This document shows positions 5,302 to 28,686 of a stretch of DNA of 64,000 nt, piece after piece; positions within the stretch are counted from its first letter, which is position 1, and the number at the start of each line of letters is the position of its first letter. The notes below the pieces were generated by a model that saw only the letters and a list, made by a program, of their open reading frames with translations, did no database searches and was not told the origin of the DNA. Source of the stretch: Octopus vulgaris. Lineage: Eukaryota. The DNA lies in assembly GCA_951406725.2 (NCBI GenBank), contig OX597830.1, positions 77,376,001-77,440,000 of the forward strand, in the 5' to 3' direction. The translations under genes were made by a program, and so were the position numbers.

Positions 5302-6222
5302 TACGAGGGACGTTCAATAAGTAATGCCTCTGACCCACTTGCAGTTGTTGGATCTAGCTGAAATTTGTGGAAACTCTGTGGAAACAGTTCCCAAATCTGG
5401 TCGCCCCTTCTGCCATTGATGAGGCATCTGTCCGTCAAGTTGAGACTGCCATTTTGGAAGATCGACGCATAATTATTCGCCAAATAGCCCATGAGGTCAA
5501 GATTAGTACGGGTCTATGGAAACCATCATTCATGACCATTTGCATATGCAAAAGGTGTCTGCCAGATGGATTCCCAGGTTGCTCACGCCTTTCCAGAAGC
5601 AAGAACGCGTCGAGTGCTCGAGGGTGAATTTGGAGATGTGCCAAGAAGATGAGTCAAAATTTTTCAAAAGACTGATTACACAGGATGAAACCTGGGTCCA
5701 TCACGATGATCCAGAGACCAAAGCCCAGTCAATGCAGTGGAAGCACCGTGACTCACCCCCTCCAAAGAAGGCAAGGGTGCAGCCCTCCGCTGGCAAGGTC
5801 ATGCTCACAGTCTTCTGGGACCAGGACGGAGTAGTGATGACAGATTTCCTGGCAAAGGGTACCACAATTGCAGGAGCCTATTATGCTTCACTTTTGAGGA
5901 AATTAAGAGAAGTTATCAAAATCAAGAGGCGGGGCAAGATCAGCAAAGGCATCCTCCTCCTGCAGGACAACGCTCCGGTCCACAACTCGCTTGTCGCCAG
6001 ATCAGAAGCACAGGCGTATGGCTATGAACTCCCCCCATCCCCCTACTTTCCTGACCTTGCACCCTCTGATTTTCACCTCTTCCCAGCCATGAAGTTGTTT
6101 TTGAAAGGAAAGCGTTTCCCAGATGATGCAGCCTTGATTTCTGAAGTCACGTTCAGGTTGGAGGACCAAGCTGGGGTCTTCTACAAAAACGGTCTCCAGA
6201 GCTGCATCAAACAATGGGAGAA
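5302..6222 (+). mobile_element. Mariner (D,D34D-type) transposon, internally deleted and 3'-truncated
   Basis: TA + CGAGGGACGTTCAATAAGTAATG left TIR; transposase motifs WIPRLL, DETW, QDNA, YFPDLAPSDF; ends at QWEK in a TA run, right TIR absent. Confidence 0.92.
5367..6222 (+). pseudogene. Mariner transposase pseudogene
   Basis: HTH-like segment (ILEDRRIIIRQIAHEVKIS) in one frame, frameshift near 5515 into the catalytic domain ORF starting at 5516; N-terminus missing. Confidence 0.88.
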
Positions 6223-6451
6223 ATATATATATATATGTTTTATATGGTCAGGCGATTTGGCGTCTATTTTTTTCGCATATTGGCAAAGAAAATATTTTCT
6301 TTTGCCCTTATTTATAATTGTATATATATATATATATTTATAACTTTACACACACACACATACACATACACACACGCACTTATATATATATATAGATATA
6401 TGTATGCACAGATGTGTGTATATATATTTATTTAGTTCGTTTATACTTTTA

Positions 6452-12155: not shown

Positions 12156-12778
12156 CATTTTCCGTCTTTCATTTGCCATATATGCACATATATTTATGTG
12201 CATATTTCTGTTTGGATATATCTACACAAGCATGCATGTATGTATATATGTATTGTTACTAAGCAAGTGTATGTGGATTGGGTAAATATGTGCGTTATAT
12301 CAATTAATCATGCAACTGTGACAGCACCAACTGTGTTGTCACAGTTGCATATCCTCAATTTCACATTTCTACGAGGATATTTTAATATTTAAACTTTCAA
12401 ATGTGGTGAATCGCAGAATCGGTAAAACGCCGGACAAAAGAATTAATTGCAGTGTCTAAGAATGTATTTTTACGCATTTAACTCAAATACCACCATGATA
12501 ATAACATATCTTTTTATTCCCAATGAATTCTGGTTTGTTTCGAGCAGGATTCTCTCATCCCGGTTGTTTTTCATCATAGGAAAACCCCTATTTTTAACGA
12601 TGTTTATTCATAACATTCGCAGTTCATCTGCGTAAGGGTCCTTTTGCATATAGTGGTATTTCGGCTTTAATGTGTATCCCAGTCCAAAGTACCTTGCCGG
12701 AACGGTGGATGACAGGGGCACGATCTCTTCTTTATAGGATTCAGCAAACAAATTATTTGTTTATGCGTGATGATTTCT

Positions 12779-13359
12779 GGGCAACAGATAATAATTCATG
12801 GGATATACGCAGAAAATTGAGAATTCAAATAGCAGAGCTATATTTTCTTACCAGAATCTGGCAGATTCGAACGTGTATATCTCATCGCTGGAGTTTGTCA
12901 TCTTCGGAGAACACCCCCATCTCTAGACAAGATGGCTTCATAACGCATATCACTTGGACAGACTTGGTTTGGGCGATGGTGTGCAAATAATAAAGCATCT
13001 AGATACGTTATTGTTAGGATTCTCGCATCATGTGATTGATTTTTCTTTTCTGTTTCTAGAAACAAGAACTTATACTCTTGTTAGATTCATTGGTCCAAGC
13101 TAGCTTTGACTGAGGAGACAGAAAAAGATCGAAACACCTTCATGTTTCAAAGTCTCCTTACACCAGTGAATCATGTGTGTTTTTGAATGCACAACGTCTA
13201 AAGGGAGGAAGTGTTTTCCGATGACGAAAAATAACAGAGATCAGATATCTACGTTCGAATCTGCAAGAGCATATTTTTAGAAGGAAGAGAAATATTATTG
13301 TTTGGATTCTCGCTATTCCACGCGCACCTCATGAATTAACACGACATTAAAATTTGCCC
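12779..13359 (+). ncRNA. Rod-like structured RNA element with apical hammerhead (retrozyme/viroid-like)
   Basis: Nested helices 12779-84/13354-59, 12792-802/13328-38, 12819-32/13298-311, 12861-74/13251-64, 12904-14/13211-21, 13084-94/13162-72, with many G-U pairs. Confidence 0.65.
13104..13152 (+). ncRNA. Type I hammerhead ribozyme
   Basis: ctttga-CTGAGGA-ga cagaaaaaga tc-GAA-ACA ccttca TGT-T-tcaaag; 6-bp stem I, GUU triplet, weak stem II. Confidence 0.8.
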
Positions 13360-13440
13360 TAATTAGTCCAGTACACTAATTATTTATGTTAAGTTTAAAG
13401 TTCAAACTCAGCTGGTATTGATTTTGTTAATAATTCCTCT

Positions 13441-13865
13441 AGGTGCAGGAGTGGCTGTGTGGTAAGTAGCTTACTTACCAACCACATGGTTCCGAGTTCA
13501 GTCCCACTGCATGGCACCTTGGACAAGTGTCTTCTACTATAGCCTCGGGTTGACCAAAGCCTTGTGAGTGGATTTGGTAGACGGAAACTGTAAGAAGCCC
13601 GCCGTATATATGTATATATATATGTTTGTGTGTCTGCGTGTGTGTTTGTATGTCTGTGTTTGTCCTCCCAACATCGCTTGACAAACGATGCTGGTGTGTT
13701 TGTGTCCCCGTAACTTAGCGGTTCGGATAAAGAGACCAATAGAATAAGTACTAGGCTTACAATGAATAAGTCCTGGGGTCGATTTGCTCGACTAAAGGTG
13801 GTGCTCCAACATGGCCGCAGTTAAATGACTGAAACAAGTAAAAGAGTAAAAAAAGAGTAAGAGTA
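13441..13865 (+). mobile_element. SINE type A
   Basis: Full copy matching the family. Confidence 0.9.
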
Positions 13866-17597: not shown

Positions 17598-18272
17598 GTT
17601 ACTGCAGAGTCTATGCAGACAGAGCAATTGGGTGTATGGGATGGAGAGCTTGATGTGGGTAGGATGGGGGGAGCAGAAGTTGAGGTATGACTTTGAGTCG
17701 GTGTGTTTGTAGTGCGTGGAGGTAGTGAGAGCTGAGTTGTGTATGTTGACCGACTTGTCGAGAAGGGCAATGGAAGTGTTGGAAATGGTGCAGGAAAATT
17801 CGAGGGCAGGATGGACGGATTAGACAAAAGAGAGGAAGGAGTTTAGTTGTTGGCGGGATAGCGAGGTCGTGCCGATACAGTCATCAATATAACGACCGTA
17901 TAGTTCGGAAGTGGGGACCTTGAAAATATTGAGAATCTTGAAAATATTTGGGCCTCAACGTAGTCAACGAACAGGCTTGCATAGTTGGGGTTCATTCTCA
18001 TTCTCATGACCACTCCCGAGATCTATTGGTAAAACTCCCCCGCGAATGAGAAGCAATTGAGGTAGAGGACAAGTTCGACCAGATGAAGAAGTGTGGACAT
18101 GTCAGGTTGTGGGTTGATTTTGAAGATGTATGAAGTATTTGAGGACAAGAAATCCTTCGTTATGTGGGACTTTTGATATCAAGAGTAAAGAGAAGTTTAG
18201 AGGGACCAGGAGGGAATGAGAAAGAGTTGAAAAGACGAAGAGCAGGGTTAGTATCGTGGATGTGTGAGGGAT
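17598..18272 (-). pseudogene. Penelope-like element reverse transcriptase relic
   Basis: Manual minus-strand translation: DTNPAL..LLFTLDIKS, LVELVLYLNCFSFAGEFYQ*ISGVVM..PNYASLFVDYVE, YGRYIDDCIG, HPALEF, YKHTDSKSYLNFCSPHP..IPYTQL; has stops and frameshifts. Confidence 0.85.
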
Positions 18273-26358: not shown

Positions 26359-28686
26359 TTATTGCTCATTTAGCTTGGGTTCGAATTTATCAATAAAATT
26401 CTTTTCTCTGATTTTCCTCTCGATTTCACTTGGGCTGTGTAATTTGTAGAATGGAAATATTATATATATTTTCCGACCACATGTTGCTAGGTGGTTACTC
26501 AAAGGTATCTGACGGACCTCTGGGTCTCTAATCTGTTGCCGGTGTACACGTGAGCGTTCTAATAGTGCGTTTCCCGTCTGACCTACATATATTTCTTCAC
26601 AATTTGGGCATTTGATGCAGTAAATTAAATTTCTGCTTTTGCAGTTCATATTCGCGTTTGTGAATATTTTCCCGGTTTTTGTGTTTATATATTGACCGGT
26701 ATGTATGAATTGGCATGTGCCACATCGGCTATCATTGCATTTAGATACCGTGAATGTTTGGTCTTTGTTGCTGAGGTCAAATTTTGCCTTTGTTAGTAAT
26801 GTTTTCAAGTTTTTAGGCTGTCTTTTACTAAGCACCATAGCTCGATCCTTGATTATGTCTTTTAATTCATTACTTTGGGCAATGATTGGAAGGTTTGCTT
26901 TGGCAATGTTGAAGATATTCTGGTGACATGGGTTGTGTGTCACTATGAATGGTATTACTTGTTCTTGTTTTCCTCTTCCTTGGGTTGTCCTAAGTTGTTG
27001 TATAGGTATTTTTATAGCCCGCTGTATGCCATTTTCTATAAGTAGAGATGGGTATTTTTGTTTGAGCAAAAATTCTCTTAGTTCTACTAGGCGTTTGTTC
27101 CTGATATTTGCATCTTCTACAATAGTACAAATTCTTCTGGCTAGGCAGTATGGGATGTTACGTTTTGTATGTGGTGGATGGCACGACTTAAAATTTAGGT
27201 ATTGATGTGTGTCTGTGTGTTTATAGTATATATCTGTGGTGATGGTGGTGTCTTTTTTAATTACCATTATATCCAGGAATGGTAATTTGGTACTACTCAT
27301 CTCCTTTGTAAATTTGAGAGATGGGTGTAGGTTGTTCAGGAGGATATTGAACTCTTCCAGAGTATTTAGAGATTCTGTCCAGATTATGAAACAGTCGTCT
27401 AGGTATCTCTTCCATGCCTTTTCAATATACTTTCTAAATCCAGTGCCATAGTTTACCTCTACCTCTTGGTAGAGTTGTTCTTCTAAGTATCCCATTACAG
27501 AGTTGGCGTAAACGGGAGCAAACCTCGTTCCCATCGCCGTGCCTCTAATTTGGATGTAATTCTTTCCATTGAAGAAGAATGTGTTATTTTCTAGAATAAG
27601 TTTGACTGTGTCTAATATAAATGGCACTGTGAATCTGCTGGGAATCACTTCTCTATGTTTTTCTAACCAGTATTTAATCGCCTTTATTCCTAAATCGTGT
27701 GGAATATTGGTGTAGAGGCTTACCACATCAAAACTTAGTAAAACTGAATTTGTTTCTGTTGTTTTGGGAAGATGGGACAGGAAGTCGATGTCATCCCTGA
27801 TGAAACTTGGTATGTAAGTACATAGTGGTTTCAAAACAATGTCAATAAAATTGCTTAGACGGTGTGTAGGGCATGCTGGACCAGCTATAATAGGTCTAAG
27901 TTTTAGGTCTTTTGGATGTAATAATTTTATGTACTCACTTTCTTGTTCTTTTACTGCCTGTTGAATGTTTTTTGATTTGTGTATTTTTGGTAAGCCGTAG
28001 AAGTTGCTGGGTTTTGGTTCAAAATTGGTGATGTAGTCTTTTTCATTATCCGTAAGTGAGTTGTGGTGTGTTGAAATCAGGTTGTTGATCTTTTTCATGA
28101 TGTGGTGGTCTATATTTGCGGGTATTTCACAATAGAAGGTTGTATCCTTCAGTTGGTCTTCAACCAAATCCTTATAGTATTCGGTATCCATAATAACAAT
28201 TGCACCACCTTTATCTGCTTGTTTAATTATTATTGTTTGATCGTTTTGTATACGTTTACATGCAGACATCTCTGATTTGCTAATGTTTGGCCTAACATTG
28301 GTATTGCGTCTAAGGGGAAATTTAGACAGGATATCAATGTATTGGTCAAGGTAGTTATTTCTTCCTTTTGGTGGGGTGAAATTTGATTTATTCCTTACTA
28401 GGGATTCATCAATCTCATTACTTTTGTTAGCGAAGAATTCTACAAGTCGTAATTTTCGACAGAATTTTTGGATATCCTCCTTTAATTCTTGGTGGTTGGC
28501 TGTTGGTGTAGGTGTGAATTTCAGTCCTTTTGACAGAAGTTGGATTTCATCATTGTCAAGATCTCTTTTTGATAAATTAATTATTTTAGGATCTATACGT
28601 TCAGTTGTTTGGGGTATGTTTCCTCTTGGATTTTTTCTTTCTCCGGTGTTTGTTGTCCTGACGTAAAAAAATGGATTTTTTTCTGG
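26359..28686 (-). CDS. PLE polyprotein: reverse transcriptase + GIY-YIG endonuclease
   Basis: ADKGG, FYGLPKIHK, LRPII, SFDVVSLYTNIP, GTAMGT, RYLDD, FLD, CNDSRCGTC linker, LIYCIKCPNC..YVGQTG; frame stays open upstream of Met 28269 (IINLS..LLSKGLKFTPTP) to ~28686. Confidence 0.95.
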   Translation of the reverse strand, partial: PEKNPFFYVRTTNTGERKNPRGNIPQTTERIDPKIINLSKRDLDNDEIQLLSKGLKFTPTPTANHQELKEDIQKFCRKLRLVEFFANKSNEIDESLVRNKSNFTPPKGRNNYLDQYIDILSKFPLRRNTNVRPNISKSEMSACKRIQNDQTIIIKQADKGGAIVIMDTEYYKDLVEDQLKDTTFYCEIPANIDHHIMKKINNLISTHHNSLTDNEKDYITNFEPKPSNFYGLPKIHKSKNIQQAVKEQESEYIKLLHPKDLKLRPIIAGPACPTHRLSNFIDIVLKPLCTYIPSFIRDDIDFLSHLPKTTETNSVLLSFDVVSLYTNIPHDLGIKAIKYWLEKHREVIPSRFTVPFILDTVKLILENNTFFFNGKNYIQIRGTAMGTRFAPVYANSVMGYLEEQLYQEVEVNYGTGFRKYIEKAWKRYLDDCFIIWTESLNTLEEFNILLNNLHPSLKFTKEMSSTKLPFLDIMVIKKDTTITTDIYYKHTDTHQYLNFKSCHPPHTKRNIPYCLARRICTIVEDANIRNKRLVELREFLLKQKYPSLLIENGIQRAIKIPIQQLRTTQGRGKQEQVIPFIVTHNPCHQNIFNIAKANLPIIAQSNELKDIIKDRAMVLSKRQPKNLKTLLTKAKFDLSNKDQTFTVSKCNDSRCGTCQFIHTGQYINTKTGKIFTNANMNCKSRNLIYCIKCPNCEEIYVGQTGNALLERSRVHRQQIRDPEVRQIPLSNHLATCGRKIYIIFPFYKLHSPSEIERKIREKNFIDKFEPKLNEQ

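Follow-up and report, generated by a model that had tools for sequence, protein, structure and literature searches.

Two Decayed, Head-to-Head Copies of a 339-Nucleotide Retrozyme-Like Unit in Octopus vulgaris, Likely Integrated by a Penelope-Like Element

INTRODUCTION

Does a hammerhead ribozyme at the tip of a long predicted rod mark an integrated viroid-like RNA, or can such a rod arise from the way in which DNA was inserted? The question is raised by a locus in a 64,000-nt stretch of Octopus vulgaris DNA (contig OX597830.1; the whole stretch is referred to here as the window, and positions are counted from its first letter). Viroids, along with viroid-like and delta-like rod-shaped circular RNAs, combine a hammerhead with a long predicted rod, and a first-pass annotation had read the locus as the reverse-transcribed copy of a rod-shaped RNA of this general kind, 600 to 860 nt long and possibly circular.

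RESULTS

The arms of the rod are inverted copies of one 339-nt unit

Alignment of copies of the repeat, with one antisense row left out of one of the alignments, revealed a tandem unit with a period of 339 nt, and both arms of the rod match the profile of this unit in opposite directions, with their 5' ends facing each other. The left arm (12496 to 12948, minus strand; profile search, E = 5e-86) is a 5'-truncated array of ~1.35 units that runs from unit position 176 to 339 and then from 1 to 301, and it lacks the tail. The right arm (13000 to 13341, plus strand; E = 6e-83) is a 5'-truncated copy that begins at unit position 285 and continues through one unit up to position 339. It alone carries a 3' tail of ~40 nt (13302 to 13341, plus strand), and it has also lost some 50 nt internally, near 13026 to 13042, and contains a direct repeat (13001 to 13026 repeats 13288 to 13313). 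The two 5' ends are joined by a junction of about 51 nt that could not be assigned to the unit (12949 to 12999). No additional copy was detected in the 64-kb window by the unit profile search.

The rod (12792 to 13338) is formed by 12792 to 12943 pairing with its homologue at 13181 to 13338, to which it is 66% identical. The 14-bp helix that had first drawn attention to the region was found at 12861 to 12874/13251 to 13264, within a 58-nt, 79% inverted repeat (12857 to 12914/13211 to 13268), and the nested helices described over ~12779 to 13359 were likewise present in the minimum free energy (MFE) structure. On the plus strand, the 863-nt region folded to −253.6 kcal/mol (z = −7.67 relative to shuffles). 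Strand specificity was not borne out: the minus strand also beat all 20 shuffles (z = −4.79), and the inner rod alone gave z scores of −9.5 and −7.0 on the two strands. The MFE structures contained 37 G-U pairs on the plus strand versus 28 on the minus strand.

An excess of G-U over A-C oppositions had been offered as an argument against a decaying DNA inverted duplication. Direct reading bore out the three G-U pairs in 12819 to 12832/13298 to 13311; however, the 160 homologous columns of the inner rod comprised 106 Watson-Crick pairs, 13 G-U, 15 A-C (P = 0.85 for G-U versus A-C), and 26 other oppositions. Counts made within predicted helices are circular, because folding admits G-U and rejects A-C. 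An alternative outer register gave a G-U:A-C ratio of 30:21 in 251 columns (P = 0.26), and none of 37 arm-against-arm comparisons showed an imbalance at P < 0.05. The "second hairpin domain" proposed at 12530 to 12760 belongs to the minus-strand array, which continues there, and its fold did not surpass shuffles on either strand (z = −0.4 in each case).

Rods of this kind were readily obtained elsewhere in the family. Of the other inverted loci, 21 in total, 10 were folded as controls. Nine of these gave rods of 370 to 874 nt, with one or both strands at a z score of −5.3 or below, L109 being the sole exception, whereas the same rod was seen at 0 of the 66 other family loci.

The locus is present in three related organisms (organisms B, C, and D). 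In organism B, one contig spans the stretch and differs from it at 35 of 1161 letters. Of 27 mapped ortholog differences, 15 lie within the rod, and none of these is compensatory; of the 9 that have a homologous partner, 5 disrupt pairing in the ortholog, and the other 4 mark pairs that the window lineage has lost. An apparent depletion of ortholog changes at MFE-paired sites (6 of 15, versus 69% of sites paired) was rejected as an artifact of folding the window's own sequence. Since the arms are 34 to 37% apart and the species differ by 3%, the insertion would be roughly ten times older than the split.

By these comparisons of sequences and predicted folds, the rod is an inverted duplication at the DNA level, the mirror symmetry of a head-to-head insertion. 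Both strands fold, the arms form an inverted duplication, and covariation is absent, all of which the first-pass annotation had itself named as speaking against its reading. An integrated copy of a rod-shaped, circular RNA of the viroid-like type, 600 to 860 nt long and tipped by a hammerhead, would fit the strong and somewhat better plus-strand fold and the presence of a hammerhead core. We nevertheless regard it as extremely improbable, given that the arms are homologous copies of one unit, that G-U and A-C oppositions are balanced, that other inverted loci yield rods of their own but never this one, that the orthologs carry no compensatory change, and that the minus strand has a second, dead hammerhead, which is in register with the unit.

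The hammerhead at the locus is decayed

The plus-strand motif (13104 to 13152; Rfam and pair inspection) consists of stem I (13104 to 13109/13147 to 13152), the core CUGAGGA (13110 to 13116), stem II (13117 to 13119/13128 to 13130), GAAA (13131 to 13134), and stem III (13134 to 13137/13142 to 13145), with the nominal cleavage site after U13146. The truncation of the left arm, downstream of the hammerhead, is the only reason that the motif lies near the tip of the rod. Although the motif is a real type I hammerhead with all 11 core letters present, it is not "intact" as had been stated: it is decayed relative to the family, with C.A oppositions in stems II and III leaving 11 of 13 stem pairs, and its cleavage triplet is GUU, the final position being C in 61 of 83 family copies. 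Its score against Rfam RF00163 (21.2 bits, E = 0.23) falls under the 34-bit gathering score. In 5 of 5 sequence contexts, the active fold was 8.4 to 9.5 kcal/mol above the MFE, with a stem II probability of ~0. The motif is predicted to misfold and to cut poorly or never, and the locus is predicted to have no RNA function.

The second hammerhead (12641 to 12689, minus strand), identified by alignment, is broken, with one core letter deleted and 7 of 13 stem pairs remaining. An "active" retrozyme has been defined by two consecutive intact hammerheads, according to the available text of Li, Clavereau and Pollet (2026, 10.64898/2026.07.22.740005). With one decayed copy on the plus strand, one broken copy on the minus strand, and no consecutive intact pair, the locus appears from its sequence to be a dead copy that falls outside this class.

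The earlier statement that there is no convincing open reading frame held up. The longest stop-to-stop frame encodes 130 amino acids (12598 to 12990) and is broken by a 1-nt insertion in all three other organisms compared. Judged from frames, orthologs, and a search with peptides of Penelope-like elements (PLEs), the locus and its family are non-coding, as are non-LTR retrozymes.

The unit belongs to an old, dispersed family whose hammerhead core is better kept than other columns

The related copies that the first-pass annotation had anticipated were found in numbers, with 646 candidates from a first query, of which 40 were scored, and 766 from a second. Among the 40 scored candidates, the best other copies were 69 to 79% identical (68 to 79% over both queries) and often matched both arms in opposite directions. 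After removal of 11 duplicate loci, 67 distinct loci were studied. Copies are ~68% alike, with a median of 20% of positions departing from the column's commonest letter; substitutions are strand symmetric (C>T, 21.2; G>A, 20.6), and arrays reach about 2.5 units. Since units within one locus are about as alike (0.69) as units from different loci (0.68), a monomeric circle and a linear multimer are not distinguishable. Natural single units folded below shuffles in 31 of 36 cases, by ~5 kcal/mol, without a significant difference between sense and antisense (P = 0.23), a comparison that decay blurs. One sequencing run, guessed to be RNA, contained three 40-nt pieces that were <90% alike and have no bearing on expression.

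The consensus of 83 unit copies spanning the motif has a 6-bp stem I, a 3-bp stem II, a 4-bp stem III, and a GUC triplet. The full core is retained in 37 of these copies, and 2 have the core plus all 13 pairs. Across the family, 84% of hammerhead cells are paired, compared to 22 to 43% in slid controls. Core columns are better kept than columns with the same letter (mean percentile, 0.85; 0.72 in a less biased set, P ~ 0.005), and their neighbors rank at 0.46 to 0.48; L067 and L072 were left out of the second core-conservation test. This conservation is a modest sign that the ribozyme was functional, and needed, in source copies, subject to search bias and to the non-independence of copies.

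RNAalifold returned no consensus pairs for either the hammerhead domain (47 copies) or the circular unit (44 rows). Covariation at the named pairs was not above shuffles (the observed values were reached by 154 of 500 shuffles for the score, 354 for pairs, and 44 for cells), a result that decayed copies would give in any case and that is therefore uninformative. A CpG skew at C11.1/G12 (31 TG versus 13 CA, P = 0.01) was considered as a trace of selection on the general base and discarded, as 4 other of 18 CpG sites were equally skewed. Metagenome contigs gave no match to the hammerhead pattern.

Several other features of the unit and of related hammerheads were noted. The best segments started at unit positions 0 to 59 in 24 of 67 loci (at 15 to 59 in many), and a small hairpin lies nearby, upstream of the hammerhead; the clustered starts may reflect either a stop site or search bias. 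The genome contains 170 matches to the hammerhead pattern in all. The sister families L141, L173 to L232, L138, L139, and L142 share the core and have a longer stem II (GACCC/GGGUC); a stem II loop of ~70 nt occurs in three sister-family copies, and one sister family comprises 897 candidates that are 81 to 86% alike. With 45.5 bits, L137 on contig 5 (6546758 to 6546804, minus strand) scored highest when the genome was searched with the Rfam type I hammerhead model. It looks canonical and lies outside the 339-nt family; it could be a conserved single-copy ribozyme.

The family's insertions have the shape of Penelope-like element insertions

The head-to-head arrangement was found at 22 of 67 loci, comprising the window locus and 7 of 29, 10 of 22, and 4 of 15 loci by search. 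The sole tail-to-tail call corresponded to a hairpin locus, L022, whose self-hairpin hits were excluded from the 3' tail count. The 5' starts are scattered over the unit and the 3' ends are fixed, with 68 of 88 outer 3' ends falling into two bins that are separated by ~40 nt, make up 16% of the unit, and were chosen after the histogram had been viewed. The 22 head-to-head pairs included 12 with one long and one short 3' end, 1 with two long ends, 2 with two short ends, and 7 that were unclassifiable. Discordant ends in 12 of the 15 classifiable pairs, the window locus among them, indicate a one-sided tail (P = 0.035, with the bins set after viewing).

Long inverted arms are also what a foldback or MITE-type DNA transposon, or a DNA-level satellite with the hammerhead as a passenger, would produce, and the recent local sequence exchange between arrays described below would suit DNA- or cDNA-level traffic. 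We consider such an origin very unlikely, however, because 44 of 66 loci have a single orientation, the inversion point differs at each locus, fixed 3' ends are combined with variable 5' ends, and the hammerhead core is conserved. The hallmarks of these elements were not found either: no fixed terminal inverted repeats were seen at the ends of the family, and the window locus showed no target-site duplication, the longest word shared by its flanks being 5 nt.

The combination of 5' truncation, fixed 3' ends, an inverted copy, and a one-sided tail does match PLE insertion units. The available text of Craig et al. (10.1101/2021.04.23.441226) portrays PLE copies as 5' truncated and partially tandem, with a second truncated copy next to them in inverted orientation and a 30- to 40-bp tail on one side, and that of Goubert et al. 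(PMC8969392) states the same features. The octopus genome contains PLEs with open ~775- to 781-amino-acid frames encoding reverse transcriptase (RT) and GIY-YIG domains, some with the same insertion shape: the young PLE L098 has a 766-nt, 100% identical head-to-head copy extended on one side, and the PLE L167 has a head-to-head copy of 1099 nt at 99.8%.

Could the unit then be the tandem 3' pseudo-LTR of an autonomous PLE, old and seldom copied together with its coding part, making the locus a stub rather than a member of a separate family? The footprint is the same as that of PLEs, and the PLE L099 carries two tandem 287-nt repeats behind its open reading frame. However, the family's arrays reach a length of about 2.5 units, and what precedes them is either more of the unit or unrelated flank. 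When 36 to 37 PLE peptides were compared to the 67 loci, most with ~1.5 kb of flank, an RT fragment was found at only one (L005, ~730 nt upstream); it is 80% identical to a young PLE family and is probably unrelated to the 339-nt unit. The upstream flanks of the 44 single-orientation loci share merely scattered pairwise matches, and the 4-bp stem III of the family differs from the minimal hammerhead variants of the PLEs examined. The unit profile had no hit in any of 30 GIY-YIG loci, in any of 10 PLE regions of eight kb each (best score, 2.1 bits), or in any of 30 loci from another PLE family, so that no parental or autonomous PLE was linked to the unit in this incomplete sample of PLE families, mostly with 1.5-kb flanks. 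We judge the stub explanation to be unlikely, albeit one that deserves some weight.

The window itself harbors a young PLE, with an open 775-amino-acid frame containing RT and GIY-YIG domains (26359 to 28686, minus strand), which we take to be Neptune-like. Its family has a CxxxxCxxC linker, and its 3' end matches L098 and bears a minimal hammerhead-like motif in which CCGAAGA replaces CUGAAGA. The loci L091 to L093 represent a young full-length PLE family with two open reading frames and near-identical pLTRs; their hammerhead-like motif reads UUGAUAA and resembles the U3-A8 variant of the core that the available text of PMC4209133 reports from Schistosoma.

Nearby arrays share mosaic tracts

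Tracts of 92 to 100% identity are shared among the contig 3 arrays L121, L122, L123, and L124 (at 2.17, 2.58, 3.49, and 4.64 Mb) and among the contig 1 arrays L119, L120, and L128 (at 107.25, 108.05, and 110.80 Mb). The tracts have abrupt edges and unshared flanks and connect arrays that are 0.4 to 3.5 Mb apart, within which units are ~70 to 80% alike and inverted arms ~65 to 75%. The window locus belongs to no such cluster. The plain reading of the tracts is ectopic gene conversion. It is also conceivable, though we think it doubtful, that the family is still live, with old heteromultimer transcripts being processed by the hammerhead and copied by PLE RT into nearby arrays, resulting in local RNA-templated homogenization. 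If this were true, such homogenization together with the one-sided tail would be direct genomic evidence of PLEs mobilizing retrozymes.

Other repeats were observed in the window as well, namely, a repeat at ~13440 to 13850 (plus strand), which presumably is an octopus SINE judging by resemblance; a Mariner-type transposase fragment (5507 to 6343, plus strand; PF01359); a weak RT fragment (17601 to 18133, minus strand); and a perfect, MITE-like 31-nt inverted repeat with arms 197 nt apart (11518 to 11548/11746 to 11776).

DISCUSSION

We conclude, with a probability of roughly 80%, that the locus is an old, decayed head-to-head insertion of a retrozyme-like 339-nt unit, likely integrated in trans by a PLE, and that its rod reflects the mirror symmetry of this insertion. 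The family is likely a non-coding, non-autonomous, non-LTR-retrozyme-like lineage mobilized by Penelope. Much of the first-pass annotation survives in this reading, in that the locus is non-coding, hammerhead bearing, retrozyme-like, and likely reverse transcribed; what does not survive is the 600- to 860-nt rod RNA, the unit being 339 nt.

Such an insertion may have formed as follows. Source copies would have been transcribed as multimers or as hammerhead-cut circles, and PLE RT would have begun at a fixed site of the unit RNA, with reverse transcription primed from both ends of the target break. Reading past the unit boundary and stopping early would have yielded truncated cDNAs, whose 5' ends may then have been joined into the head-to-head pair.

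At this locus nothing but a fossil is left, yet the family contributes a further lineage to a known kind of genomic parasite. The searched literature contained no description of such a cephalopod family, the supplement of PMC7229834, Repbase, and Dfam being outside this search. The insertion shape supports the proposal that PLEs mobilize animal retrozymes, and it does so with evidence distinct from co-occurrence and pLTR phylogeny. It also calls for caution, since head-to-head PLE-type insertions yield hammerhead-tipped rods that mimic viroid-like RNAs.

Unlike the rods of viroid-like RNAs, the rod in the window stems from DNA homology, is locus specific, and shows neither G-U excess nor covariation. 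The closer comparison is with animal non-LTR retrozymes, which have a non-coding tandem unit of 170 to 400 nt (350 to 390 bp in mussel) according to the available text of PMC7229834 and 10.64898/2026.07.22.740005. The repeating unit of 339 nt is therefore of ordinary size, rather than beyond that of animal retrozyme monomers as had been thought. As far as those descriptions go, the family also resembles these retrozymes in being non-coding, in having one type I hammerhead per unit and a low GC content, in its dispersed monomers to short multimers, and in sharing its genome with PLEs. In contrast, its copies are old and known from sequence alone, and no long homogeneous array or pLTR relative was found among them. 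Head-to-head insertions and tails are present in the family and unreported for retrozymes in the available portions of the same two sources.

With respect to PLE insertion units, the family lacks a linked RT or GIY-YIG open reading frame, and its hammerhead has a full stem III, whereas PLE hammerheads are described as minimal and palindromic in the accessible part of PMC4209133. It nonetheless shares with endonuclease-positive PLEs, as portrayed in the available text of 10.1101/2021.04.23.441226, the 5' truncation, partial tandems, inverted copy, and one-sided ~40-nt tail, and, as in the PLEs covered by the accessible part of Cervera and De la Pena (2014, PMC4209133), its hammerhead lies within the repeated end.
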